Assembly (NCBI GenBank): GCA_964611895.1
Contig: CAZTDN010000019.1
Span: 577 to 64,576 of the forward strand
Source: an uncultured Pseudobdellovibrionaceae bacterium
Lineage (GTDB): Bacteria; Bdellovibrionota; FAC87; UBA2466
DNA: 64,000 bases
Reading direction: 5' to 3'
The position numbers were made by a program, and so were the translations under genes. This document shows, one piece after another, positions 4,353 to 56,445 of this stretch. The notes beneath the pieces were generated by a model that was not told the DNA's origin, ran no database searches, and worked only from the letters and a program-made list of their open reading frames with translations. How positions within the stretch are numbered: position 1 is the stretch's first letter; each line of letters opens with the position of its first letter.

Positions 4353-4480
4353 GGTAATTATCTCCAATGGGCACATTCCTGAGGCTGGCTAGCCGGAAGG
4401 TGCCGTAATTTGTCTCTCGTTTTATCGAAAGAACGGCCATGATACTACTGTCGTTTGGGTGGATTTGAAAGGTTGGCTTT

Positions 4481-4488
4481 GGTATAAT
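4481..4488 (+). promoter_or_regulatory. candidate sigma-70 extended -10 (TGgTATAAT) upstream of the Ser/Thr kinase
   Basis: Sequence tttggTATAATgc at 4478-4490, 19 nt upstream of the TTG start. No good -35, so only an extended -10 call. Confidence 0.25.
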
Positions 4489-4506: not shown

Positions 4507-6024
4507 TTGGGGGCTGTGGGGTTAGTGAGCGAAGAACAGTTGCATTCTTGCGTTCAGGCAGAAGGGTTCGAACTGCTCTCAGAAGTCGGGCGGGGGGCGT
4601 CGGCCCGTATTCTGCTCGCTCGAGAAATTTCTACGGGCGATAAAGTCTGTCTTAAACTCTTCCATCCCCGGCTTTTTCAAGAAGCCACCAGCCAGGCGCG
4701 CATACGTCGGGAAATGGAGCTCTCTTCGAAGCTTAAACACCCCCATATTCTAGCCGTGCGGCGTTTCGTTTTGGACACACCGTCGCCGTATATGGTGTTG
4801 GACTATGTTCCCGGAAAGAACCTAGAGAAGTTCCAAGCAAGCCTTCCTTATATTTTGCCCGAAGTCGCAGTGCAAATTTCGATACAGATTCTTAAAGCGC
4901 TTGAGTATTCCCATCGCAAAGGGATAGTGCACCGCGATCTTAAACCGGAAAATGTTTTGGTGCGTGAGGATGGCCAAGTGTTTGTTGCGGACTTTGGCTT
5001 AGCGAAGGGCCGCGATCACGCCGCGACAAATCTTTCCAATACTTTGGTGGGGTCAGTAGATTACATGTCTCCCGAGCAGGTAAAAGGAGACTCCGTCGGT
5101 CCGCAATCCGATCTCTTTTCGTTGGGGGCGGTGCTGTATTTCTTGACGACCGGAACTCGTCCGTTTTCGCGCGGCTCGATCGTGGCAACTCTGGAAGCTG
5201 TAAAAAACGCAGCTCCTGAGAGTCCGCTGAAGAGAAACCCGAAAATCAGTAACCGCTTGTCTGCCTTGATTCTTAAAGCGATGGCGCGGGACGTATCGGC
5301 TAGGTTTCAGAGCGCAACTGAAATGCGAACGGCGCTCGAAGGGTACTTAGCTGATACGGGCCTAAGCGAGAATACCTTCAATTTGCATGAGTGGATGGTG
5401 GATCCCTCCGCCGTAACCATGGACGCACTGGGGCGATGCGTGGAAACACTGACCGCTCGCGCGGAAAAGTTACTGGCGCAAAGGGAGTGGGATGCCTTTA
5501 CCGAAGTGCAATCGCACTTGAGTATCAAAGCCCCGGAAAGCGAATCGCTCAGGCGATTATCCACACTTTACCGAAGTACTCGTCGAGCCAAAACTCGTCC
5601 GGTCTTGCGGTGGTCCTTGGTTGCGGTCTGGTTGTTAGTCATTGTGGGAGCAGCTGTTTTTTACTGGCCGAAAAACCCACAACCCCAGAGTCTTCCATCT
5701 CCTGTTGTCGCAAATCCAGCCCCCGTCGAAGTCGCGCCAGCGGTTCCCGCTGAAACCATCATTCCCGATCCTAAACCTGCTCCCCACAAGTCGCCCGCGG
5801 CTGCCAAACTAAAGGCACCTTCCGCGGGTGCCGGGACGGTTTGGTTTCGTCTCCCCCAAGGCACTGAGGTTTATTGGAATGGGTTTCCGGTCGACCCGGA
5901 AAAACCGCTCTATAACCAGAAGTTCGGTTTGCACGATCTTAAAATGATCCGAGAGGGTTTTGATCCAATCACGGCCAAAGTTGAAGTGTCCGCCTCAAGG
6001 CCAACCATTATCAAGGTGAACTAA
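4507..6024 (+). CDS. Ser/Thr protein kinase (Hanks-type) with C-terminal TM helix and Pro-rich extracytoplasmic tail
   Basis: HRDLKPENVLV catalytic loop, DFGLAK, SPEQ. TM segment WSLVAVWLLVIVGAAVFYW followed by PQPQSLPSPVVANPAPVEVAPAVP. Start is TTG at 4507 (GTG 4522 is an alternative). Confidence 0.85.
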   Translation: MGAVGLVSEEQLHSCVQAEGFELLSEVGRGASARILLAREISTGDKVCLKLFHPRLFQEATSQARIRREMELSSKLKHPHILAVRRFVLDTPSPYMVLDYVPGKNLEKFQASLPYILPEVAVQISIQILKALEYSHRKGIVHRDLKPENVLVREDGQVFVADFGLAKGRDHAATNLSNTLVGSVDYMSPEQVKGDSVGPQSDLFSLGAVLYFLTTGTRPFSRGSIVATLEAVKNAAPESPLKRNPKISNRLSALILKAMARDVSARFQSATEMRTALEGYLADTGLSENTFNLHEWMVDPSAVTMDALGRCVETLTARAEKLLAQREWDAFTEVQSHLSIKAPESESLRRLSTLYRSTRRAKTRPVLRWSLVAVWLLVIVGAAVFYWPKNPQPQSLPSPVVANPAPVEVAPAVPAETIIPDPKPAPHKSPAAAKLKAPSAGAGTVWFRLPQGTEVYWNGFPVDPEKPLYNQKFGLHDLKMIREGFDPITAKVEVSASRPTIIKVN

Positions 6025-6026
6025 TC

Positions 6027-7829
6027 ATGATGTATCTCAAACTTTCCAATCAGGCGCCGCTTGGGATCGATAAAGCGGTTTTTACTGTGGGGTGGGGAAG
6101 GGCATTTGACGCTTCACTGGGTGATGGACCCGAGACCCTCTGTTTTTCCATTCAAAAAGAAGGCGAAACCTACCATCTCATTCCGGGCAGCGAACGCCTG
6201 CGCCTTAATGCGCGGATTGTTTCCGGAGTGGAACCTGTGCAGAGTTTGGATCGGATAAGCTGGCGGGAAGAAGCGGCGGTTTTGCTCACCGACATTCAGG
6301 TCGGAGAGACCGGCGAAAAACGAGACACTAGTCTAGAATGTCTGCGCATTTTGGAACAGTTGTCCATCCACTTGGAAAACTCCGAATCTCTGACGGGGGC
6401 GCTTCGCCAAGCGCTGAATGCGATGGCGAACGTAGCGGGAGCGCAGGGCGGAAATCTAGTGTCCGAAGTCGACCCCGGAAGTGGTTGGGAGTTGCTTGCA
6501 AGTTTTGGTTTGTCGTCAGGCGGCACTGCAGAAGAAAATCCCCGCAAGACCTTGCTCAGCCACACGGCGGTAAACGAAGCGATTCGTTCCCGGAAGCCAG
6601 TTTATGTCGAGAGCATCATCGGCCATGACTGGGCTGATCAGGCATCCATCTTAGGGGCCCGCATTTTTTCCCTAGCTTGCCTCCCTCTGGTTGTCGGAGA
6701 GCGTGTCTTTGGGTGTGTGTACTTGTTTACCAGGACGCCAGGAAAATCTATCCATCGGGATTCGCTCGCATCACTTTCCATTTTGGGCACACAGGTTGCC
6801 TTGCTTTTGGCTACCCGAGCTCAGTTGAATCGCGAGCGACAACGCAATCGGGAATTCAAAAACAAGTCGGGCGAAAAGAGCTTTGTGTACAACCGCGCCT
6901 TGGAAAATAGTCCGATGAAAGCTTTGGACCTGCGCATCTCAAAGCTTGCCCCAGCAGATCTAAACTTACTGGTCCTCGGAGAGACGGGTAGCGGCAAAGA
7001 GGTGATTGCTCGAGAACTCCATTTGCGGGGTGTCCGAAACAATGGGCCTTTTGTCGCTGTGAATTGCGGTGCCATTCCGGCAAGCCTGATTGAGTCTACG
7101 TTATTTGGATTTGTGAAAGGCTCCTTTACCGGAGCGACTCGCGATCAGGATGGGAAGTTTGTACAGGCAAACGGGGGGACGTTGTTTCTGGACGAGATTG
7201 GGGATCTCCCTTTGGATCTCCAAGTAAAGCTCTTGCGGGTTTTACAAGAGCGGAGCGTGGAACCGGTGGGCGGTTCCAAAGCAGTGCCAGTAGACTTTAA
7301 ACTGATTGCTGCCACTCACCAGGATTTGGAAGGGCTGGTCAAGAGTGGAAAGTTTCGACAGGATCTTTATTACCGGTTAAATGGCGCGTCTCTAGTGATT
7401 CCCCCTTTGCGTGAACGGACAGGCGATATTTTGCTTTTAGCGGAGTATTTTTTAGGCTTTTCGGGGATGGATCGCCGTTTTTCAATAGATGCAAAGCAGC
7501 GTCTATTACAGCATTCGTGGCCAGGAAATGTTCGGGAGCTGGAGCAAGTCGTTTGTCGGGCTGCAGCGCTTGCTGAGGGGGAGGAAATTTCGCCCGAGGA
7601 CCTGGAAATGGGAGTTTTGGCCACTTCAGGAAACGCCTCCAACTCTTTGGATATGGCCGATCTTCCTTCAGGATTGAGGGAAGCCCAAGAAACATTCACT
7701 CGGGAATTTGTTAGAGCTGCTCTGGAACAAAGTGGTGGCATGCGATCTAAAGCAGCCGCTCGGCTGGGAATTTCAGAGCGCACATTGTACCGCATTCTCT
7801 CCACTGCATCGTCTGACACTGCGATCTGA
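6027..7829 (+). CDS. sigma-54-dependent transcriptional activator with putative FHA-like N-terminus (central domain not classified)
   Basis: AAA+ sigma-54 interaction domain motifs GETGSGKEVIARELH, ESTLFGFVKGSFTGA, GGTLFLDEIGDL, and a C-terminal HTH (AARLGISERTLYRIL). An N-terminal ~90 aa beta-rich module (FTVGWGRAFDASLGD...LNARIVSG) resembles FHA; the segment between it and the AAA+ core is unclassified. Starts 2 nt after the kinase stop. Confidence 0.85.
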   Translation: MMYLKLSNQAPLGIDKAVFTVGWGRAFDASLGDGPETLCFSIQKEGETYHLIPGSERLRLNARIVSGVEPVQSLDRISWREEAAVLLTDIQVGETGEKRDTSLECLRILEQLSIHLENSESLTGALRQALNAMANVAGAQGGNLVSEVDPGSGWELLASFGLSSGGTAEENPRKTLLSHTAVNEAIRSRKPVYVESIIGHDWADQASILGARIFSLACLPLVVGERVFGCVYLFTRTPGKSIHRDSLASLSILGTQVALLLATRAQLNRERQRNREFKNKSGEKSFVYNRALENSPMKALDLRISKLAPADLNLLVLGETGSGKEVIARELHLRGVRNNGPFVAVNCGAIPASLIESTLFGFVKGSFTGATRDQDGKFVQANGGTLFLDEIGDLPLDLQVKLLRVLQERSVEPVGGSKAVPVDFKLIAATHQDLEGLVKSGKFRQDLYYRLNGASLVIPPLRERTGDILLLAEYFLGFSGMDRRFSIDAKQRLLQHSWPGNVRELEQVVCRAAALAEGEEISPEDLEMGVLATSGNASNSLDMADLPSGLREAQETFTREFVRAALEQSGGMRSKAAARLGISERTLYRILSTASSDTAI

Positions 7830-7879
7830 CAGTCCTGGCAGAAAGCGCTTTATTTGCGGAGCGGGGTGCCTGGTATTGC

Positions 7880-7895
7880 TGGCATCGACGTTGCA
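7880..7895 (+). promoter_or_regulatory. sigma-54 (-24/-12) promoter TGGCAT-N5-TTGCA
   Basis: ctGGcatcgacgttGCa has GG at 7881-82 and GC at 7893-94 (exact GG-N10-GC). It sits 50 nt after the sigma-54 activator stop and ~42 nt upstream of ATG 7938. Confidence 0.5.
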
Positions 7896-7937
7896 ATCGT
7901 TTTGTGTACCCAAAGTGGGCAAGAGGAGATTTCGAGT

Positions 7938-8741
7938 ATGAATATGCGGACTATTAGCATGTATTTGACCCTGACTGTTTTGCTATTTGCGATCATGACG
8001 GCTTCGGCTTTTGCGGATACGTACAATTTCTATTTTGATAAGAAAAAGAAAAGCCCGGATAATGCCGAAGCGATCGCTCCTCCACAGGCTGAGAATTCAA
8101 TAGAGGATTCGGCGGACTCTTACTCGAGACCGCTGCCTAAAGAGCCGCAGCCAGTCATCATTAACAACAACATTTCGACCCCGCGATCACCCGAGTATCT
8201 GGAGCCCACACCTAATGTCCCCACGCAAACGAGTGTTTCCTCCTATTCCTCTACGCCGCCGTATTCAGTGGAATCCGAAAAGCGGCTTAAGTGGAGTATC
8301 GGAACGTCCTTTTTGGTATGGGCGGGTCGAGAAAGGGTAGCGGATTTAGCCGATCCCAGCACCTACACAGACATTACCGCGAATCAAATTCTCCAGGGCG
8401 TGGGTGCTGCCGCTGCTGTTTCCCTTGGGTATCGAATACTGCCGGGATTGGGGGTCAGCGGTTATGTCGGAAATGCGAGTCGTGGGAGGGCGTTTGTGGG
8501 CGCTGATGTTGAGTGGTGGCCGCTGCGTTTGGATGTGGGTCGATTTGACCTGCTCGAACTTGCGCTTCTAGGTGGGGCATCCGATACGATTGCGTTTTCT
8601 GGGTACGGCTCTCCCGCTGTCTTGCCTCACTTGGGTACGCGACTGAACTTGAATCTTGGGCCGAGCTTTACACTGACGGCTTCGGTTCGGTTGAACCGCC
8701 AGGCGAGTATTGGTGAATTGGGAGTGGGAATCCATCTCTAA
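7938..8741 (+). CDS. hypothetical secreted/outer-membrane protein (low-complexity N-half, Gly/Ser/aromatic-rich C-half; beta-barrel-like guess)
   Basis: Signal peptide MNMRTISMYLTLTVLLFAIMTASAFA at the internal ATG 7938; the ORF-track start 7854 would overlap the sigma-54 promoter. C-half has alternating hydrophobic pattern, no conserved motif. Confidence 0.45.
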   Translation: MNMRTISMYLTLTVLLFAIMTASAFADTYNFYFDKKKKSPDNAEAIAPPQAENSIEDSADSYSRPLPKEPQPVIINNNISTPRSPEYLEPTPNVPTQTSVSSYSSTPPYSVESEKRLKWSIGTSFLVWAGRERVADLADPSTYTDITANQILQGVGAAAAVSLGYRILPGLGVSGYVGNASRGRAFVGADVEWWPLRLDVGRFDLLELALLGGASDTIAFSGYGSPAVLPHLGTRLNLNLGPSFTLTASVRLNRQASIGELGVGIHL

Positions 8742-8792: not shown

Positions 8793-9551
8793 ATGTTCTT
8801 GAGTGACTTCCATGTCCACTCGACGTTTAGCGACGGGAAACTGACGATTTCTCAACTCGTGGATATGTACGGCAGACAGGGGTTTGGAGCGATAGCCATC
8901 ACGGACCATCTGTGCGAAGAACGCACCGTCATCGGAAAAGCCGCCGCCTACATTGGGTGCTCGCTCACCCGGAGCAACTACGCACAGTACCTCTCCACCA
9001 TTCAGCAAGAAGCAGAACGAGCGTGGGAGCTGTATCAAATGGTGGTTCTGCCGGGGTACGAATTGACGAAGAATAGCCTTTCCAATCACCGTTCCGCCCA
9101 TGTCCTTGGACTGGGTGTAACGCAATACCTCCCTGCGGATGGAGATATTGTGGCCCTCGCTCGGCATATTCGTGCGCAAGGAGCGGTGGCGGTTGCAGCG
9201 CACCCCGTCTGGACTCGGGTGGTGGAAAGGCAGACCTATTACCTTTGGGATAGGCGAGATGAGTTAGAGGCAGAGTTTGACGCGTGGGAAGTCGCGAGCG
9301 GTCCTTATTGGTTTGAGGAGGTTGCTGCGACTCGATTGCCGAAGCTTGCGACCTCTGATTTGCACCAACCCAGGCAATTCACTTCTTGGAAAACCGTTTT
9401 GGATTGCGAGAAACACCCCGAAGCGATCTTGGATGCGATTCGCAGACAGGAGGTCAGCTTTCGCTTTTTCCAGGCGCCCGTTTCTTTTTTCAGGGACGTT
9501 GCTGCTGGGGTTGCTTCTAACACTTGGAGATCAGAGGCTAAAACAGCCTAG
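8793..9551 (+). CDS. PHP-domain metal-dependent phosphoesterase
   Basis: N-terminal FLSDFHVHSTFSDGKLTISQLVDMYGRQGFGAIAITDHL is the canonical PHP motif (HxH, D, H). Confidence 0.7.
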   Translation: MFLSDFHVHSTFSDGKLTISQLVDMYGRQGFGAIAITDHLCEERTVIGKAAAYIGCSLTRSNYAQYLSTIQQEAERAWELYQMVVLPGYELTKNSLSNHRSAHVLGLGVTQYLPADGDIVALARHIRAQGAVAVAAHPVWTRVVERQTYYLWDRRDELEAEFDAWEVASGPYWFEEVAATRLPKLATSDLHQPRQFTSWKTVLDCEKHPEAILDAIRRQEVSFRFFQAPVSFFRDVAAGVASNTWRSEAKTA

Positions 9552-9610
9552 TTGGGGCCGCTTTGACACCGGTTGGCCAATAGAAGCGGCTTCTGGCATA
9601 CTCCCGCGCT

Positions 9611-11713
9611 ATGCAAAAGATTCGGCAACTGCCGACGCTACCTTCTTTGCTCGCCCAACCAGGCATGCCCTTGATTCATAGGGATATTAGCTGGCTGCAT
9701 TTCAACGAACGGGTTTTGGACGAAGCTCGCCCATCGAGTGGCAATCCCTTGATTGAACGCGCGAAGTTTCTTGCGATCAGTAGCAGCAATTTAGACGAGT
9801 TTTTTATGATCCGTGTGGCTTCCATGAGCCGCAAACTTCGATCTCAAAACCGGATTTCTAAATGGAGGTCTGCCCATTCTCCACATCTGATAGGAGTGTG
9901 GAATTCGGTTTTGGAAACCGTGGCTAAATTTGGAGTAAAACAAACCGAAGTCTTAGAAATGCTGGTCCCAGAACTCAGGGCCCATGGCATCCATCTAGTG
10001 ACCAGCTCCTTGGACAATGAACTCACCGCAAACCTCGGTCGCGAAGTTTTTGAAACAGAGGTTCTGCCAAAACTAGCTCCGCCGGAGACTTTTGAACTCT
10101 CCAAGCTTTTAACGTTGCCTAACCTGAAGACGGCCGTGATTTTTCCGGACAAGCTGTGGTTTGCGGTGCCCCCGGGTCTGCCCTTCTTGCTCTCCGCTGT
10201 GCGCGGAAATGATAGGTATTATTTTTTCTTAGATGACTTGCTGGAAAGCTTCATGGGGCCCACCTTCGGTTTGCAAGGCAGGGTGGGCCTGGTGCGATTG
10301 ACTCGCGATGCGGACATTTCCGTGGATATCGCCGAAGAAGATCCTGAGTCTTTGCCCGACGTGGTTTTATCCCGACTCCTGTCTCGCGAAAAAGGCGTGC
10401 CGATGCGTCTGCAGTACCGCGGGCATCTCACTGACGATTTGCTTACACAGATGGCGGACGTGCTTAAGCTGCGTCCTCAGCAGGTATTGCCTGCAGCCGG
10501 AAGCTTGGTGCTGCAATCCCTTTGGGCGCTAGTAAAAGAAATGTCCCTGGATCGTGCGTCCGATCCCCAGCTTGTTTACGCTCCCTTGCATGCCCCACTC
10601 CCCGCATTTTTTGGCGATCGCTCCAAGATCTTTGAAAAGCTGAAGTCCCAGGATTACCTGCTTCATCACCCCTACGATCCTTTCGATGCATTTGTGGAGT
10701 TTACGCGCGCTGCAGCAGAGGACCCTCAAGTCGAGATGTTGGAACAGACGATCTATCGGATGGATGATGCCTCTCCCATCGTTGGCGTACTAAAAGAAGC
10801 CGCGTCCCGTGGAAAGAAAGTCCGAGTCATCATTGAGCTGCGTGCGCGATTTGACGAATATAATAATCTGCGCCTGGCGGATGAGTTGCGCAAGGGAGGG
10901 GTTGAAGTCGCCTACGGCTTTGGTGCCCTCAAGCTTCATGCGAAGGTAACCTTGGTCACCCGCAACGAAGGCGGGATTTCTCGACGTTATACCCACCTAT
11001 CCACGGGAAATTACAATGCCACGACAGCACGTCAGTATACCGATCTGGCGGTGCTGACCTCGAACGAGGAAATTGGAAACGATGCGCGCAAATTCCTCGA
11101 TGCTGCATGGGCAGGCAAACTCCCCAGCGCTTTCAAACGTCTGTTATCCGCGCCCACGGGGTTGCACCGCAAGCTTGTCAATTTGATCGAAGGCGAAATT
11201 CAGGCAGCCAAAAATGGCCTCAAGACCCGTATCGTCGCAAAAGTGAATGCTTTGGTGGACGAGAGTGTGATTCAAGCTCTGTATACTGCTTCACAAGCGG
11301 GGGTAAAAATCGATCTAATCGTCCGTGGTGCTTGTTCATTAATACCGGGTGTGCCCGGTCTTAGTGAGAATATTCAGGTCGTCAGTGTGGTAGATCGGTT
11401 CCTGGAACACAGTCGATTGTATTATTTCGAGAGCGCGGGAGTGTTGTATTTGTCGAGTGCTGATTGCATGCCGAGAAATTTTTTTTCGAGGCTGGAGTTA
11501 GCATTCCCAATCTTAGATCCAAAAATTTACCGCTATATTGAGCAAGTGGTGATTCCTGCCTATTTGAGAGACAACTCTAAGGCGCGGGAATTGACGCCTC
11601 AAGGTACTTGGAAAAAGCGCGTACGTCGATCCTCTGCGGAAAAAGCGCGTTCTCAAATGGTTTTTGAGAAGCTGGCGCGGGAGGCCTATCAAGGGACTAC
11701 TCTCGAAAGATGA
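9611..11713 (+). CDS. ppk: polyphosphate kinase 1
   Basis: ISWLHFNERVLDEA N-terminus, two PLD-like HxK motifs (KLHAKVTLV; RFLEHSRLYYFE), and PPK1 length. ATG 9665 (MPLIHRD...) is an alternative start. Confidence 0.9.
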   Translation: MQKIRQLPTLPSLLAQPGMPLIHRDISWLHFNERVLDEARPSSGNPLIERAKFLAISSSNLDEFFMIRVASMSRKLRSQNRISKWRSAHSPHLIGVWNSVLETVAKFGVKQTEVLEMLVPELRAHGIHLVTSSLDNELTANLGREVFETEVLPKLAPPETFELSKLLTLPNLKTAVIFPDKLWFAVPPGLPFLLSAVRGNDRYYFFLDDLLESFMGPTFGLQGRVGLVRLTRDADISVDIAEEDPESLPDVVLSRLLSREKGVPMRLQYRGHLTDDLLTQMADVLKLRPQQVLPAAGSLVLQSLWALVKEMSLDRASDPQLVYAPLHAPLPAFFGDRSKIFEKLKSQDYLLHHPYDPFDAFVEFTRAAAEDPQVEMLEQTIYRMDDASPIVGVLKEAASRGKKVRVIIELRARFDEYNNLRLADELRKGGVEVAYGFGALKLHAKVTLVTRNEGGISRRYTHLSTGNYNATTARQYTDLAVLTSNEEIGNDARKFLDAAWAGKLPSAFKRLLSAPTGLHRKLVNLIEGEIQAAKNGLKTRIVAKVNALVDESVIQALYTASQAGVKIDLIVRGACSLIPGVPGLSENIQVVSVVDRFLEHSRLYYFESAGVLYLSSADCMPRNFFSRLELAFPILDPKIYRYIEQVVIPAYLRDNSKARELTPQGTWKKRVRRSSAEKARSQMVFEKLAREAYQGTTLER

Positions 11714-12189
11714 AAGATCGTATTTTGATTTTAGTTCGACACGCACACCGAGATACCGACAAGGGCCGGGATCGAGACAATGGTCTAAGCGATCGCGGCA
11801 AGGTGCAGGCAAAGTCGGTTGCTCGGTTTTTTTTGGAACGCTTTGATGTTGCAACGCCTGTTCTATTGTCTAGCCCCAAAATTCGCTGTATCGAGACTTT
11901 GCTTCCCCTTAGCGACAAACTTGGAGTCGAGGTACAGGTGGTCGACCTGCTTAAAGAGCAAGCGGGCACTCAGAAAGAGTTTGATCGGCAAATTGAGAAA
12001 TTTTTCCGGTGGTGGAAACAGCGCGCCCCAGAAACAGTGGTGGTATGTTCGCATGGCGATTGGATTCCGCGTTTTGCTAAAAAAGTGTTTGGGTTGGAGA
12101 TAGAATTAAAAAAAGGCGGATGGATGGAGGTAGAAAGCTCTGGCGGGGCGATCCGTCTCCGTTGGCTATTGCAAAAACTACCGCGTTAA
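11710..12189 (+). CDS. histidine phosphatase superfamily protein, SixA-like phosphohistidine phosphatase
   Basis: ILILVRHAHRDTDKG (RHG-type catalytic His), LSDRGKVQA, CSHGDWIP. Size (159 aa) matches SixA. ATG overlaps the ppk stop (ATGA). Confidence 0.65.
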   Translation: MKDRILILVRHAHRDTDKGRDRDNGLSDRGKVQAKSVARFFLERFDVATPVLLSSPKIRCIETLLPLSDKLGVEVQVVDLLKEQAGTQKEFDRQIEKFFRWWKQRAPETVVVCSHGDWIPRFAKKVFGLEIELKKGGWMEVESSGGAIRLRWLLQKLPR

Positions 12190-13698
12190 AGTGATCAGGT
12201 TGCGCCGGAACACTTTCTCAAAAAGCGCCTTTTTTTGTTGAATCTTGAGTAGGGCAAGCTCAGTGGAGTCTCCACGACTCAGCCAAAACCGAACGGTTTT
12301 CGAGCGGATTTCTACACGCTCAGGCTCAACGCGCTTGGGTTTTGCATAGTCGAAACAATCAATCAACCTCAATAGTGCTAGAAGCTTCACAAACGCGGCG
12401 CCCTTGCTCTTGTTCTCCCCACTTTGGAATGGCAGCTTTCCAGTGCCGGACTTTCCATTCGTATGCCAAAAGCAAAGTTCTGCGACAAAATCGGTTTCCC
12501 AAGCCTCCGCTAGCGGAAGTTCCGCGTGTTGAACGATATAGGCGGAATGGGCTTCATATCCAGAGGGAGATACACTTCTCCCGGAGTTTCGAAACATGAC
12601 TGCCAAAGCAAGGTAGGCAAACCACTTGTCATCGAGTTTGTGCAGCGGGCGAAGTTTTCTAAATAGCCGTAGAGAAGCGCCGACGAGCCACCTCAAACGC
12701 GCTGGCTCTTCGCCAAACCGGACCGACTTTTCGAGAAAAGGTTCCAGGTCCCATCGGTCATTTTTCGGAGCGGGTTTGATCATTCTCAGCTGTTGATCCA
12801 AAATCCCATCTCTCAGGGAATATTCCGTTGAAGTGGCCGACTCCGCGCCTAAAGCACGCAAGGTTTCCGCTAAGACTACTGTCCCAGCTAGCATGAGATC
12901 CGCGCGACGGGGATCCATGCCCGGGAGGGACTGAATCTGTTTTATCGTCAATGGGGTCATGGTTCGAATGAGCTTTTCGAGCCATTTGGGAGTAATGTCC
13001 TTGCCCGTGTTTCGATTGCACATGCGATCGAGGGCCCGCGCGGTTCCGCTGGATGCGATGACCGATTTTGTTTTTGGCCAGTCGTTGTTCTTGATCGCTG
13101 TTTTGAGCAGGGTGCGGACATGGCCGCGTAGGTGTTTGACGGCTTCTTTGCCGTCTTCAGGGGGGATGGTTCGTAAAAAGATTTGTTGTAGCCTCGCGAC
13201 CCCAAGGGGGAAACTTTCGCTCACCACGAGCTTGTTGCCGCGGCAAACACTCACTTCGGTGCTGCCTCCCCCGATATCCACTAGTCCAAAAAAACCTTTG
13301 GGAGGTTTTTCGCGGTTTAAAATAGCGTCTGCAATCAAGGTGGCTTCTTCGCGGCCCGAAATGATGTGAACATCCATTCGCAGTGTTTTGCGTATTTTGA
13401 CAATGAGATCTTCAGCGTCGCTTGCATCTCGCAGCGCGCTGGTGGCGAAAGCGATGATTTTTTCTGTTTTTAGTTCTTCGGCGCGCTTTTTGAACGTGGA
13501 CAGGGCTTGCAGGGTGCGTCGGGAGGCCTTGGGGTCTAATTTGCCCGAGATAAAGACATTTTCACCCAACCTAACCATGAGCTTTTCTCGATGCAAGAGG
13601 CGGGTCTTATCTCGAGCGAGGGTTTCATGGACATCAAACCGGACTGAGTTCGTCCCTAAATCAATAATCGCAAAGCGTTTTTTCTTCCATTTTGCCAA
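12178..13698 (-). CDS. ppx: exopolyphosphatase / guanosine pentaphosphate phosphohydrolase (Ppx/GppA family)
   Basis: FAIIDLGTNSVRFDV, VDIGGGSTEV, ASSGTARAL actin-like ATPase motifs of Ppx/GppA. 506 aa. Confidence 0.85.
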   Translation of the reverse strand: MAKWKKKRFAIIDLGTNSVRFDVHETLARDKTRLLHREKLMVRLGENVFISGKLDPKASRRTLQALSTFKKRAEELKTEKIIAFATSALRDASDAEDLIVKIRKTLRMDVHIISGREEATLIADAILNREKPPKGFFGLVDIGGGSTEVSVCRGNKLVVSESFPLGVARLQQIFLRTIPPEDGKEAVKHLRGHVRTLLKTAIKNNDWPKTKSVIASSGTARALDRMCNRNTGKDITPKWLEKLIRTMTPLTIKQIQSLPGMDPRRADLMLAGTVVLAETLRALGAESATSTEYSLRDGILDQQLRMIKPAPKNDRWDLEPFLEKSVRFGEEPARLRWLVGASLRLFRKLRPLHKLDDKWFAYLALAVMFRNSGRSVSPSGYEAHSAYIVQHAELPLAEAWETDFVAELCFWHTNGKSGTGKLPFQSGENKSKGAAFVKLLALLRLIDCFDYAKPKRVEPERVEIRSKTVRFWLSRGDSTELALLKIQQKKALFEKVFRRNLITLTR

Positions 13699-25878: not shown

Positions 25879-27654
25879 ATGGCAGCCGGAACGGTAGCAA
25901 AACTTTTTCCCTGGCGTATTTTTTATCGAGTAGCGCTAGTTCAGTCTCTGCTTATTCTACTGGCTCTAGCGTCATCGGGTCTGGTGGCTCGGCAGTTGCT
26001 AAAACGCCAGTTTGTCCTCGAAATCCAAAGTCGAGTAAATGATGTCTTGTCTCTTGTCCTGCAGAGAGTCCCCGCTTCTCCCAATGCAGATTGGTGCAAA
26101 ACCCAATCCCTACCCAGCTCAATTCGCCTGACCTTGATCCGAAAGGATGGCTCGACGGTTTGTGATTCTAAGTCAGAGCCTCAATCTTTGGGCAACTTGT
26201 CCGATAGGGAAGATTTTCAAGCCGCCCTCAAAACCGCACAGATTGCTTTTGATCGATCTCCTGGTTTGTTGTCGGGGGCGCTTTTGCATCCAGCGAGTGG
26301 GGCGGTTCTACGCGCGGAAATTTCGCTTCTAGAACTGGAGCAAACCCTGCGCGTGTTTGATACGAGCTTTGGAATCGCACTGGCGGTAGTGGCGTCCATT
26401 CTGGGTGGTTTGGCGATTTGGCTTGCAAGGCGTTTGGTGTTCCCTCTGGGGCGTTTGATTCTCAAAACGCAGCGACTTGTCTCTCAACAGCCGGAGATGG
26501 TCTCTCGTGATGATCTGACCAAAGAAGTTTTTGATGAGTGGGCAGACTTGGAGTCCAACATCGATCGCCTCAAGCGAGATCTCGCTGCTAAAACGCAAAG
26601 TCTGTCCATGGAGCAGTTGGAGCTGGACACGATCATGGGCGCTATTTCTGACGCTATTTTGGCGGTGGACCCTGAGGGCAATCTGCTTTTTTATAACAGT
26701 CGTTTTGAAGTGCTTTTTGGTAGTGACGCCTTGCGGAGCCGGAACCTCAAACTGTGGGGGATTTTTCGGGAGCCGGATATCTTGAGCACCTTTGAAGCCG
26801 CGCTAAAACAGGGGAGGGCCGGTGGAACCAAAGCTATCTCCCTAGAACAAAACCAGGGGCCCCGTCGTTTTTTTGCGCTATCGGTGTCACCACTCCGAAA
26901 ACAAGATGGCGCAATCTATGGCGCGCTGGGAATTTTTCACGATGTCACTGAACTAAAGTCAGCAGAACAAATGCGCATTGATTTTGTGGCAAATGTGTCG
27001 CACGAGCTGCGCACTCCGCTCACGGTGATCAAAGGGTACGCAGATACGCTCCTGTTGGATTTCAAAGATAAAAACTCTGATGCACTCGAGTTTTTGAACA
27101 GTATCGCCCGCAATAGCGATCGGCTCATGAATTTAATGAACGACCTGCTGGATCTTTCGTCCTTGGAATCTGACAGCATTATCCAGAAAGACGCTATCAG
27201 TACGGAAGAGATTACCCAGCGAATCGTCAAGCAGTTGCAGGGCGCCTTTGATGCAAAGCAGCAACACATCGAAACCACGTTTGAGGCAAAGACTGTGGTG
27301 GCTGACGCCCAGCGACTAGAGCAGGTTTTGGTCAATTTGTTGAGCAATGCGAATAAATACACTCCGTCCGGTGGCGAGATCCGAGTGAACTGGTTGCCCA
27401 GTGGTAGAGACACATTGCTGCAGGTGGCCGACTCGGGTCCCGGAATTCCGGTGGAGCATCACGGCCGATTGTTCGAGCGGTTTTACCGAGTAGACAAGGC
27501 GCGTTCGCGAGAGCAGGGTGGCACAGGATTGGGGCTCGCGATTGTGAAGCACATTATGCAAAGGCATGAGGGAGCGGTTTGGGTGGAAAGCACTCCGGGC
27601 GCGGGAAGCGCGTTCTTCTGTCGTTTTCCCAAAAGAGAAGTTGAAAAAGTATAG
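25879..27654 (+). CDS. phoR: phosphate regulon sensor histidine kinase PhoR-like (TM, HAMP, PAS, HisKA, HATPase)
   Basis: H-box SHELRTPLT, N-box LLSNANKYT, G-boxes DSGPGIP and GGTGLGLAIV. A PAS-like segment precedes HisKA. Confidence 0.8.
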   Translation: MAAGTVAKLFPWRIFYRVALVQSLLILLALASSGLVARQLLKRQFVLEIQSRVNDVLSLVLQRVPASPNADWCKTQSLPSSIRLTLIRKDGSTVCDSKSEPQSLGNLSDREDFQAALKTAQIAFDRSPGLLSGALLHPASGAVLRAEISLLELEQTLRVFDTSFGIALAVVASILGGLAIWLARRLVFPLGRLILKTQRLVSQQPEMVSRDDLTKEVFDEWADLESNIDRLKRDLAAKTQSLSMEQLELDTIMGAISDAILAVDPEGNLLFYNSRFEVLFGSDALRSRNLKLWGIFREPDILSTFEAALKQGRAGGTKAISLEQNQGPRRFFALSVSPLRKQDGAIYGALGIFHDVTELKSAEQMRIDFVANVSHELRTPLTVIKGYADTLLLDFKDKNSDALEFLNSIARNSDRLMNLMNDLLDLSSLESDSIIQKDAISTEEITQRIVKQLQGAFDAKQQHIETTFEAKTVVADAQRLEQVLVNLLSNANKYTPSGGEIRVNWLPSGRDTLLQVADSGPGIPVEHHGRLFERFYRVDKARSREQGGTGLGLAIVKHIMQRHEGAVWVESTPGAGSAFFCRFPKREVEKV

Positions 27655-52877: not shown

Positions 52878-52953
52878 GCGGGCGTAGCTCAGTTGGTAGA
52901 GCATCAGCTTCCCAAGCTGAGGGCCGAGGGTTCGAACCCCTTCGCCCGCTCCA
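52878..52953 (+). tRNA. tRNA-Gly (anticodon CCC), 76 nt with encoded CCA
   Basis: Hand-folded cloverleaf. Acceptor GCGGGCG/CGCCCGC, D-arm GCTC-AGTTGGTA-GAGC, anticodon stem TCAGC/GCTGA with loop TTCCCAA, T-arm GAGGG-TTCGAAC-CCCTT, discriminator T, CCA. Confidence 0.9.
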
Positions 52954-54775: not shown

Positions 54776-55025
54776 GGGGTTCTCCTTTTACCTACGAAAA
54801 AGTAGTACGAGCAAAACGACAACTAAGATCAAACTTGCGCTGGGGTAGTAACCGTATTGCCAGGCTGAGGAATAGGGCCACACGGGTAACAGGCCGATCA
54901 CTAATAGAACTAACAAAACCAGAAGTATTGTATGCACCCTGTCCCTCCTTTGTTATTCACCTCATAAGCAACTCGCGTGCCGACCACTCCTAGGCTTGAA
55001 GGCCTAGAATCTGTTGCGCATTGAA

Positions 55026-55715
55026 TCAGTGAGCTGCGTGAGGATAAGAGAAGCTGTGCGCATTTGGGCCCAGATCTAACAGGGTTTCCACTTCAAAGCG
55101 GAGTGTGGTTTGCTTTGGAAACTGGAACTCGGATCGGCGTAACCCGCGCTCGATCAGCAGCGTTTGGACGTTACGGTAGGGATGGTTCAACCAGGCAAGC
55201 CTCTTTTCCAGGCTCTGCGGCAAAAAAGTTTCAAAGTCAGCTTGAGGTTGAGTGGGCATTTCCGTTGCAGCGAATTGGAGCTCGTTTCGCACCGTACTGA
55301 ACGGGTACTCCTCTACTCGAGAGGATAAACCCGCCTCCACGGGATTGCGGAACACGTACTTATATGCGTGCGAGTAATAGATACCGTACGTGATCAGCGA
55401 CCAGTGGTACCTGGCTCCGAAAATCCGATTGATTCGTCCGGAAACGCGACCGATTTCCTTGCTTACTTCCCTGAGAAAGTAGTTCATGCACTCTCCCAAA
55501 TCCGCCTCGGGAGTCGATGCGATTAAGTGAAAGTGATTCGACATCAAGACAAAGGAGTGGATGTTCCAGCCGTAGCGATTGCGTACGATTTCGAGTATTT
55601 CTTTGAAGATTCTCCAAACGACATCGGTTGGTAAATAGAATGGCTCGCGGTTATTGCAGCGGGCAGTGACATGATAGGGAAACTGTTTTGTTCGATACAA
55701 GGGTTTTCTTGGCAT
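55026..55715 (-). CDS. REP-associated tyrosine transposase (RAYT) / IS200-like Y1 transposase family protein
   Basis: HuH motif SNHFHLIAS and catalytic-Tyr region YKYVFRNPVEAGL (Y..Y..NPV characteristic of RAYTs/COG1943). Flanked by REP-like palindromes. Confidence 0.75.
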   Translation of the reverse strand: MPRKPLYRTKQFPYHVTARCNNREPFYLPTDVVWRIFKEILEIVRNRYGWNIHSFVLMSNHFHLIASTPEADLGECMNYFLREVSKEIGRVSGRINRIFGARYHWSLITYGIYYSHAYKYVFRNPVEAGLSSRVEEYPFSTVRNELQFAATEMPTQPQADFETFLPQSLEKRLAWLNHPYRNVQTLLIERGLRRSEFQFPKQTTLRFEVETLLDLGPNAHSFSYPHAAH

Positions 55716-55752: not shown

Positions 55753-55796
55753 GGTACGCGGTACCTTTTCAACAAAAGGTACCGCGTACCGGATTA
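55753..55796. repeat. REP-like perfect hairpin (17-bp arms GGTACGCGGTACCTTTT / AAAAGGTACCGCGTACC, 4-nt loop) followed by CGGAT
   Basis: Read directly: ggtacgcggtacctttt caac aaaaggtaccgcgtacc at 55753-55790, 38 nt upstream of the RAYT start codon. Confidence 0.65.
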
Positions 55797-56216
55797 AAAG
55801 GATGCTCGGCAGGCGTTGAATAGCCGATCGTCTACTAGGTACTGTGTTTTGTAATAGGCCGCCCAATACTGGTTTAGGTTGGCCAGGTAGTTTTTGTAGC
55901 TGGCGTCCTTACGCTGTTTCAGCGGGGCGATCTGGCAGTCGAGCTTTGCCCATCCGGTAGCAAAGTTTTGATAAATCGCATTGCTCGTAATCCAGAGCTC
56001 TAGGTATCGGCCTTGGTCGGCTGGCTGAAAAACATGGATGCCTTCACTAAATTGATAAACAGCCAGGTATTGAGTCGAGTCGCCATGCACTTGTAACGGA
56101 ATAGCGATGTGTGAACCGTCGACATAGTAGGTGAGTCCATTGAGGGTTGCCGGCGCCCACTGGGCCGAAGCAAGGGTGGTCAAGGCGGCAAAAGCCAAAG
56201 TGAAAAGTCTTTTCAT
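55794..56216 (-). CDS. small secreted protein bracketed by REP elements
   Basis: Signal peptide MKRLFTLAFAALTTLASA from internal ATG 56216. ~140 aa, Tyr/Trp-rich. No homology recognised. Confidence 0.45.
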   Translation of the reverse strand: MKRLFTLAFAALTTLASAQWAPATLNGLTYYVDGSHIAIPLQVHGDSTQYLAVYQFSEGIHVFQPADQGRYLELWITSNAIYQNFATGWAKLDCQIAPLKQRKDASYKNYLANLNQYWAAYYKTQYLVDDRLFNACRASF

Positions 56217-56372
56217 TTTCGTTTCTCCTGGTGAATAAATCGGTGGGTTGCCACCGCGGTACACCGGCACCTTGTGCAACGTCGATGCCAAGTCTCAAGG
56301 GCAGAAAGCGCAGCCAAAACCCCGGAGAATCCTTAGTTTTGTATCAAAGCTGAGATAGTCGTTCTCAAAAAA

Positions 56373-56445
56373 GGTACGCGCTACCTTTTCAAGAAAGGTA
56401 CGCGCTACCTTTTTCACGAAAGTAACCGCGTACCGGATAACGCGG
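56373..56445. repeat. REP-like cluster: two direct copies of AAAGGTACGCGCTACCTTTT plus an inverted partial copy GTAACCGCGTACCGGATAACGCGG
   Basis: 56373-56389 and 56397-56414 are near-identical units (each a small hairpin). 56422-56445 shares GCGTACCGGAT with the 55778-55796 copy. Confidence 0.55.

Follow-up and report, generated by a model that had tools for sequence, protein, structure and literature searches.

A probable sigma-54 promoter, presumably opened by the product of an adjacent enhancer-binding protein gene, for a predicted outer-membrane barrel gene of an uncultured Pseudobdellovibrionaceae bacterium

In the classical sigma-54 units that lie by the gene of their own activator, such as pspF-pspA, NtrC-glnAp2 and NorR-norV, the promoter contains GG-N10-GC within TGGCAY-N5-TTGCW, the bacterial enhancer-binding protein (EBP) carries a GAFTGA-type AAA+ domain and a Fis-type helix-turn-helix (HTH) domain and is encoded beside its target, the upstream site is palindromic and the 5' untranslated region (5' UTR) is short. 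Transcription from such promoters begins about 12 nt past the GC of the -12 element. Among predatory bacteria formerly placed in the Deltaproteobacteria, the EBPs of Myxococcus xanthus with an FHA domain are reportedly thought to be controlled by Ser/Thr kinases. Here we describe a locus of this kind in a 64,000-nucleotide stretch of an uncultured Pseudobdellovibrionaceae bacterium (contig CAZTDN010000019.1; "the window" denotes this whole 64-kb stretch), in which a -24/-12 element at 7880-7895 stands between an EBP gene (6027-7829) and a gene for a putative outer-membrane protein (7938-8741). We consider it likely, from comparison of sequences, that the element is a sigma-54 promoter which drives the gene 7938-8741 and which is opened by the upstream-encoded EBP bound at 7826-7841.

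The locus has the promoter core and the adjacent EBP gene of the classical units, together with a candidate palindromic upstream site and a short predicted 5' UTR. It differs from them in the position of the candidate enhancer, which is centred unusually near, at about -72, and includes the stop codon of the gene for the activator, in an L1 loop that reads GSFTGA and not GAFTGA, and in an input kinase of the Hanks type rather than a histidine kinase. With the FHA-EBPs of M. xanthus it has in common an N-terminal FHA-type domain followed by the sigma-54 AAA+ and HTH domains, the link to a eukaryotic-like kinase and the origin in a former 'deltaproteobacterial' predator lineage. Unlike in those proteins, the similarity to FHA is seen here by profile comparison only (E of about 1e-3) with GR and SxxH not conserved, the FHA-like domain is separated from the AAA+ domain by a GAF domain, and the kinase has a periplasmic PEGA domain.

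The window was compared with related loci, that is, contigs encoding members of the target protein family, including GTDB genomes and metagenome contigs and amounting to about 90 kb (labels of the type L001 below); the GTDB records among them are metagenome-assembled genomes (MAGs) of Bdellovibrionota / Pseudobdellovibrionaceae and one labelled 'Deltaproteobacteria'. The promoter region and its target gene comprise the following features:

7880-7895, + strand: putative sigma-54 (-24/-12) promoter, an exact motif that is conserved upstream of the ortholog.
7905-7907, + strand: predicted transcription start site (TSS), placed about 12 nt past the C of the -12 GC by standard sigma-54 geometry and giving a 5' UTR of about 32 nt.
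7921-7929, + strand: Shine-Dalgarno (SD) sequence AAGAGGAGA, 8 nt before ATG 7938; a GGAGG-type sequence occupies the equivalent place in L001, L002, L006, L011 and L012.
7938-8741, + strand: target gene (267 aa), encoding a signal peptide, a mature N-terminus, a linker and a C-terminal barrel.

The promoter motif TGGCATCGACGTTGCA (TGGCAT-CGACG-TTGCA, + strand) has its GG at 7881-82 and its GC at 7893-94 with exactly 10 nt between them, and departs from the consensus TGGCAC-N5-TTGCW only by a C to T change at position 6; every coordinate and the N10 spacing given in the preliminary description of this DNA proved correct. The motif is intergenic and in sense orientation, starting 50 nt past the activator stop TGA 7827-7829 and followed by ATG 7938 42 nt beyond its last base, and a search for sigma-70-like promoters between this stop and ATG 7938 (7830-7937) found none. 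As had been pointed out, a longer open reading frame from TTG 7854 reads across the motif. The start at ATG 7938, which had been favoured over TTG 7854, is supported by the SD sequence at 7921-7929, by the signal peptide cleaved between AFA and DTYNF, by a five-member alignment and by a database copy of 267 aa; since this copy equals the 267-aa form, the public annotation also uses ATG 7938.

All nine of the other independent loci with an intergenic region at this place carry a -24/-12 element 13-43 nt ahead of the orthologous start codon, while the target proteins of the related loci share only 24-37% identity. The elements read as follows:

L001: TGGCATCACCGTTGCA
L002/L003: TGGCAAGACCCTTGCA
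L004/L008: TGGCATCGCCGTTGCA
L006: TGGCACTGTGGTTGCA
L007: TGGCATTTTTCTTGCA
L010: TGGCACCTGGGTTGCA
L011: TGGCAAAAGAGTTGCA
L012: TGGCACCGAGACTGCA

TGGCA is invariant in them and TTGC is replaced once by CTGC, so that the nine loci conform to TGGCA-N6-(T/C)TGC-W; no two spacers are alike, and the remaining intergenic DNA around the promoters has diverged and is poorly alignable. It is thus very likely that 7880-7895 functions as a sigma-54 promoter for 7938-8741, and the claim that the motif is a real promoter, first made from this one sequence, gains its weight from the element being kept in the loci listed above. One alternative element was rejected: TGGCAG at 7836-7841 is not accompanied by TTGC at the correct spacing in any ortholog and is not taken as a second -24 element.

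Besides the promoter, the sole conserved non-coding block begins at the EBP stop codon. Two features lie at this stop codon and just before it, the first of them a candidate upstream activating sequence (UAS):

7826-7841, + strand: candidate UAS, an imperfect 16-bp palindrome CTGACAGTCCTGGCAG (CTGACAG-TC-CTGGCAG) that overlaps the EBP stop TGA 7827-7829.
7812-7818, + strand: TCTGACA copy, a possible extra half-site that falls within the EBP coding region and is followed 13 nt on by the next copy.

The candidate UAS is centred about 72 nt upstream of the predicted TSS, and the site lies about 53 nt upstream of the -24 element. Counterparts of the 7812 copy occur at the same spacing in L001 (GGTGACA), L006 (AGTGACA) and L002 (AGTGACT), and their conservation could partly reflect a conserved Asp codon. 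A UAS had been expected within the 3' end of gene 6027-7829; this proved partly right, as the conserved element (7812-7841) straddles the stop codon instead of lying well inside the gene. The sequences at the EBP stop codon are:

Window: TCTGACAGTCCTGGCAG
L001: TCTGACAGACCTGGCAG
L006: TCTGACAGATCTGGCAG
L002: TCTGACAAAAATGGCAG
L011: CCTGACAGAATTGGCAG
L012: TCTGACAATAATGGCAG

In all six loci with an EBP gene before the target, this gene ends with TGA followed by CA(G/A)-N3-TGGCAG, which points to selection acting on the DNA rather than on the protein. The upstream element also accompanies promoters that do not adjoin an EBP gene, as well as a second promoter of L002:

L007: TGTCATCTGACAACTCTGTCTGACATTTCTGTCA
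L009: TCAGACAGGGCTGTCAGTCCTGTCTGACA
L010: TGACAGTCTTGGC (opposite strand)
L004/L008: TGTCCGACAACTCTGACAGACGCGTC
L002, second promoter: TCTGACAAACCTGTCCGACAA

The core of the element, TGACARNNNTGKC (TGACAR-N3-TGKC), has a single match in the window, at 7827-7839, where 0.49 are expected, and twelve matches in the related loci, all of them followed 52-76 nt further downstream by a -24/-12 element. Measured from start to start, seven of the distances between core and promoter are 52-56, three independent ones are 66-67 and one is 76, thus in steps of about one helical turn, and the core is on the opposite strand in L010, L009 and L007; distance classes and occurrence on either strand are as expected of an orientation-independent enhancer that must face its promoter. 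In the looser form YTGACAR/YTGTCAR, the element is present in 11 of 11 promoter regions between -45 and -70, where the background rate is 0.023 per 90 nt. The best independent check is provided by L010, which has no EBP gene as neighbour and carries a strict TGACAG-N3-TGGC, inverted, at the distance of 53 nt that is also seen in the window. TGACAR-N3-TGKC is not known to match the site of any activator. Taken with the gene arrangement described below, these findings make it fairly likely that the adjacent EBP is the activator and that it acts through the element at 7826-7841.

An inverted-repeat enhancer, suggested earlier for the interval 7600-7880, did not emerge from the search of this interval, which returned only two weak pairs (7716-7779); these lie inside the HTH-coding region, lack independent support and were rejected. 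The likeness of CTGACAGTCCTGGCA (7826-7840) to CTGGTATTGCTGGCA (7870-7884) is not conserved in L001 or L002 and is taken as coincidence, and the other copies of TCTGACAG in the window (27169+, 48791-) were discarded, being within coding sequences and having no promoter motif downstream.

Two of the related loci contain further units of upstream element and promoter. At 277-358 of L002, across the kinase-EBP pair from the target, a second -24/-12 promoter with the same upstream element drives a gene for a 151-aa lipoprotein, and at 6831-6922 of L009 a unit of enhancer and -24/-12 element drives a gene for a 144-aa lipoprotein. These lipoproteins are similar by eye, without a BLAST match between them, and no homolog of them is present in the window. 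In some genomes, the activator would therefore control more than the barrel gene.

The regulatory genes upstream of the candidate UAS, and the element in front of them, are:

4480-4488, + strand: extended -10 sigma-70-like element TGGTATAAT, a perfect -10 hexamer with extended TG that matches the consensus, about 20 nt before the annotated kinase start.
4507-6024, + strand: Hanks-type Ser/Thr protein kinase (Pkinase E=1.8e-49, aa 22-268).
6027-7829, + strand: EBP (Pfam: GAF 120-261, Sigma54_activat AAA+ 294-455, AAA lid, HTH_8 559-589).

The EBP matches Sigma54_activat PF00158 at E=7e-65 and HTH_8 at E=2e-8, reaches no equivalog cut-off in NCBIfam, and shows Walker A GETGSGKE at 318-325, Walker B LFLDEIG at 386-392 and the L1 loop GSFTGA at 365-370. 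This loop is an Ala-to-Ser variant of GAFTGA that retains F and T, and no other motif of the GAFTGA type occurs in the window. The order kinase-EBP-target is kept in L001, L002, L006 and L009, and in L011 and L012 the target is preceded by the 3' end of an EBP-like gene. From the kept gene order and the conserved element paired with the promoter we infer that 7938-8741 is likely a direct target of the adjacent kinase/EBP module, as the preliminary description had it. The kinase-EBP pair itself probably has its own sigma-70-type promoter at 4480-4488, independent of sigma-54, as far as the match to the consensus tells.

The kinase has one predicted transmembrane helix at aa 367-387, judged by eye from the hydrophobic stretch LRWSLVAVWLLVIVGAAVFYW, followed by a Pro-rich linker and a C-terminal extracytoplasmic PEGA domain. 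PEGA matches were obtained for the C-termini of all five orthologs with E from 2.4e-4 to 0.09; one ortholog exceeds the Pfam cut-off (21.4 bits versus 20.8; E=2.4e-4) and the copy in the window reaches only E=0.09. The kinase stop codon lies 2 nt before the EBP start, and the assumed step from kinase to EBP rests on this conserved and translationally coupled adjacency; the chances that the kinase controls the adjacent EBP appear to us about even.

The N-terminal domain of the EBP (about aa 1-100) is divergent and FHA-like at the profile level only. Pfam gives no FHA match in the window protein even at E<=5, one of six EBP orthologs has an FHA match with E=0.16, and none of seven related EBPs scanned, taken from an exhaustive phmmer search with 18 hits, has one at E<=0.01, while GAF, AAA+ and HTH are present in them. 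A word-based homolog search with the N-terminus returned one protein only, and an AlphaFold model of the domain built without an alignment has a pLDDT of 33. When a profile of 19 sequences was searched against PDB sequences (E<=10), 17 matches were listed, among them:

YukB/EssC, E=7e-4
KIF13B, E=9e-4
Dun1, E=0.014
KIF1B, E=0.017
EssC, E=0.017
Slr1951, E=0.049

All of these scores are marginal. Eight of the 17 matched chains, including all of the top seven, presumably contain FHA. The canonical residues of an FHA domain for binding phosphothreonine are the Arg of GR, the Ser and His of SxxH and the Asn of NG; the family of the window protein has the invariants G22, D28, F40, N61 and D75 and keeps only the Asn among the canonical residues. 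In this it resembles the non-canonical FHA domains of EssC/YukB, the ATPase of type VII secretion, and of kinesin-3 (KIF13B, KIF1B), which are its best profile matches and likewise have no standard phosphothreonine-binding residues; the FHA domain of EssC is not known to bind phosphothreonine. Unlike these, the domain described here belongs to a transcription activator, and the scores are marginal (22 bits). On the profile comparison we regard the domain as probably having a divergent FHA fold without canonical phosphothreonine recognition. The designation as FHA-EBP can thus be kept only weakly, through the matches to EssC/YukB and KIF13B at E of about 1e-3; Pfam detects no FHA, and GR and SxxH are not conserved.

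The product of the target gene was described earlier as a secreted or outer-membrane protein, in agreement with its signal peptide and with a model of eight strands that matches OmpA-TM, OmpX, Ail, NspA and OmpW. The signal peptide (residues 1-26, MNMRTISMYLTLTVLLFAIMTASAFA, cleaved between AFA and D) is variable in the family, and the invariant mature N-terminus DTYNFYFDKKKK (27-38) follows, with the family block A-DTYNF(Y/F)F standing exactly where cleavage is predicted. A disordered, low-complexity linker rich in Pro, Ser and Glu includes P(V/I)IINNN at 72-78 (in the family P(I/V)(I/V)I(N/H)N). The C-terminal domain is conserved and its last residue is Leu in five of five aligned members. 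The AlphaFold model, which was built on a 5-sequence alignment, places an 8-stranded beta-barrel between 119 and 266; the mean pLDDT is 67, with the 10-residue blocks of the barrel mostly at 82-93 with dips in loops and the linker disordered. Foldseek against the PDB retrieved the OmpA transmembrane domain, OmpX, Ail, NspA, OmpW and the OprF N-domain with E from 1e-5 to 1e-3 and target-normalised TM-scores of 0.44-0.77 to these small-barrel structures.

As in these small 8-stranded barrels, the protein has a Sec signal peptide and eight predicted antiparallel strands; unlike them, it falls into no described outer-membrane protein family, its barrel is C-terminal after an extension of about 90 aa with DTYNFYFDKKKK and P(I/V)IINNN, and its C-terminal residue is Leu and not the usual Phe or Trp. 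Neither Pfam nor NCBIfam has a family for it, and the family is rare, with only five members among 5.8 billion protein clusters, one of which is the identical 267-aa protein. The model supports the view that the target is a small, lineage-specific outer-membrane barrel protein. A barrel of eight strands should have both of its ends on the periplasmic side, and the extension of about 90 residues with its invariant motif is therefore probably periplasmic. In the closest relatives the first copy is followed by a shorter barrel paralog (L001 8890-9552, L006 6834-7490, L005 681-1358) with the motif ETYNFFF or EYNFYF after the signal peptide; the window has no such second copy, and its target gene is followed after only 51 nt by the PHP gene.

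Sequence analysis and computation gave the motif and its conservation, the upstream element paired with it, the domains of the proteins and the fold of the barrel, and from these we propose the following mechanism. The kinase-EBP operon would be expressed from its own sigma-70-type promoter (TGGTATAAT, 4480-4488). The PEGA domain of the kinase would sense a periplasmic or envelope cue and the GAF domain of the EBP possibly a small molecule; the EBP ATPase is presumably gated by the FHA-like and GAF domains, with the membrane kinase 4507-6024 as a likely input, and these kinase and GAF inputs would relieve the inhibition of the AAA+ ring. The Fis-type HTH would bind CTGACAGTCCTGGCAG (7826-7841) and TCTGACA at 7812, so that the EBP could contact the closed complex of E-sigma54 at 7880-7895. 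ATP hydrolysis would then open the promoter, transcription would start near 7906, and a 32-nt leader with a strong SD sequence would allow translation of the outer-membrane barrel protein from ATG 7938. We think it rather unlikely that the locus is the output of an undescribed envelope-signalling pathway, met so far only in MAGs of the Bdellovibrionota type and in unassigned metagenome contigs, in which a PEGA kinase acts on a GAF-EBP by way of a degenerate FHA-like domain that does not recognize phosphothreonine, and the EBP acts by way of a stop-codon enhancer on an unusual barrel. In such a pathway, the invariant N-terminal peptide DTYNFYFDKKKK of the barrel could itself serve as a ligand or for sorting, and might act back on the kinase.

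Other sites in the window resemble the promoter described here. A second copy of the identical 16-mer TGGCATCGACGTTGCA, spacer included, lies at 56275-56290 (-), 58 nt upstream of ATG 56216(-), and the gene behind it, 55794-56216 (-), encodes a 140-aa orphan protein with a signal peptide that finds only itself among the 5.8 billion protein clusters. No TGACAR-N3-TGKC element is found upstream of this promoter, which makes a different activator likely for it. GTGTACC occurs about 8-10 nt downstream of both identical promoters, which may be coincidence. A further element, CGGCACGCGAGTTGCT at 54967-54982 (-), retains GG-N10-GC about 30 nt upstream of an SD sequence plus GTG and may, by its motif, be a third sigma-54 promoter of the window; the small open reading frame behind it encodes about 50 aa, very hydrophobic (MHTILLVLLVLLVIGLLPVWPYSSAWQYGYYPSAS...) and DUF3309-like by eye. 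Four copies of palindromes resembling repetitive extragenic palindromes (REP), AAAAGGTA(C/G)CGCGTACC, against 0.03 expected, are situated at 55753-55790 and 56373-56413, where they flank the gene of the 140-aa protein and adjoin a Y1_Tnp (IS200-like, RAYT-type) transposase gene at 55026-55715 (-). The same REP-like element is present in the metagenome locus L010, just upstream of its enhancer and promoter.

Several observations speak against the assignment of 7938-8741 to this promoter and this activator, and they have to be weighed together with three rival explanations. That the motif is a chance match devoid of promoter function would fit the statistics of looser patterns, since the window shows no enrichment of the one-mismatch consensus (4 matches, 2.5 expected) and one such match, at 25985, falls within coding sequence. 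The exact pattern TGGCAY-N5-TTGCW occurs twice in the window where 0.17 occurrences are expected, and 1 of 100 shuffles reached 2; with the looser one-mismatch pattern unenriched, these in-window statistics are no more than suggestive. The copy at 7880-7895, however, lies between genes in the right orientation, at 42 nt from the start codon, and the motif is conserved at the equivalent place in nine other independent loci. A chance match is already very unlikely indeed, and it is the phylogenetic footprint that disposes of it. A quite unlikely explanation is that most transcription of the target comes from the kinase-EBP operon by read-through, with the -24/-12 element as a minor, conditional or vestigial internal promoter. 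A search for terminator-like hairpins between the EBP gene (stop 7829) and the target (7938) found none, so that read-through could contribute, a good extended -10 element is available upstream of the kinase gene, and in L009 the target homolog begins 13 nt after the EBP gene with its own SD sequence and without a -24/-12 element, which appears (TGGCAAGAGAATTGCT) just downstream of the homolog, before the gene of the 144-aa lipoprotein. What counts against read-through as the main source is the constancy of TGGCA and TTGC across 10 loci with diverged spacers and flanks, a sign of purifying selection on the promoter itself, and the retention of the promoter where no EBP operon lies upstream (L004/L008, L007, L010).

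The same loci bear on the remaining explanation, namely a genuine sigma-54 promoter that is activated by another EBP encoded elsewhere, TGACAR-N3-TGKC being the site of that EBP or of another regulator. In L004/L008, L007 and L010 the target keeps the promoter and the upstream element with no neighbouring EBP gene (a methyltransferase-like gene precedes it in L004/L008 and L010), so adjacency is not universal, and the identical 16-mer promoter at 56275-56290(-) without upstream element indicates that another activator is probably encoded in the genome. We nevertheless regard this explanation as unlikely: the upstream element overlaps the EBP stop codon in six of six loci with an EBP gene before the target, two element-bearing promoters flank the kinase-EBP pair in L002, the 64 kb contain no second EBP gene, and bacterial EBPs commonly regulate adjacent genes. 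Binding of the adjacent EBP at 7826-7841 thus stays our preferred reading, with some reservations about the element. The pattern TGACAR-N3-TGKC was defined post hoc from the same sequences on which it was scored, L004/L008 match it only with one mismatch (TGACAGACGCGTC), the candidate UAS, at about -72, falls short of the distance of -80 to -150 that is classical for such sites, and inspection by eye revealed no IHF-like site. The step from kinase to EBP is the weakest link: the Arg of GR is not conserved in the FHA-like domain (the position is variable, with Trp in the window, in the alignment to Dun1), SxxH is replaced by (I/L)xF(T/S), and the domain thus has no canonical set of phosphothreonine-binding residues. 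Finally, no RpoN box was found in a six-frame translation of the window, so that rpoN is not in these 64 kb; the intact EBP would imply that the genome encodes RpoN. Bdellovibrio bacteriovorus HD100, a cultured member of the phylum, has an RpoN-like sigma factor, bd0843 (PMC3464611), and a 2025 survey of sigma-54 regulons makes no mention of Bdellovibrio (PMC12316311).

Downstream of the target lies a polyphosphate cluster (8793-13698):

8793-9551: PHP-domain phosphoesterase gene.
9611-11713: ppk1.
11710-12189: histidine phosphatase gene.
12178-13698, - strand: ppx, convergent.

Only L001 and L006, the closest relatives, keep the order target-PHP-ppk1, and no terminator was found after the target in the window or in these two loci; co-transcription of the target with the polyphosphate cluster is possible on the basis of this arrangement. 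The sole Rfam match in the window is a tRNA gene at 52878-52950 (+) (RF00005, 72 bits).

The design of the locus does not depart from known principles, as sigma-54 promoters beside their activators and EBPs linked to Ser/Thr kinases are already known, and it represents a solid, ordinary arrangement of the textbook type. What is new is the locus itself, the candidate enhancer motif with its overlap of the stop codon, the degenerate FHA-like domain, and the barrel family, which is unannotated and has an invariant N-terminal peptide. The start codon of the target is corrected, and the model assigns a probable fold to a rare and unannotated protein family. TGACAR-N3-TGKC is a candidate EBP-binding motif that may be used to predict the regulon of the activator in related genomes. 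If confirmed, the locus would represent a compact module of sensor kinase, EBP, enhancer, sigma-54 promoter and single output gene from a little-studied, mostly uncultured lineage that is related to bacterial predators.

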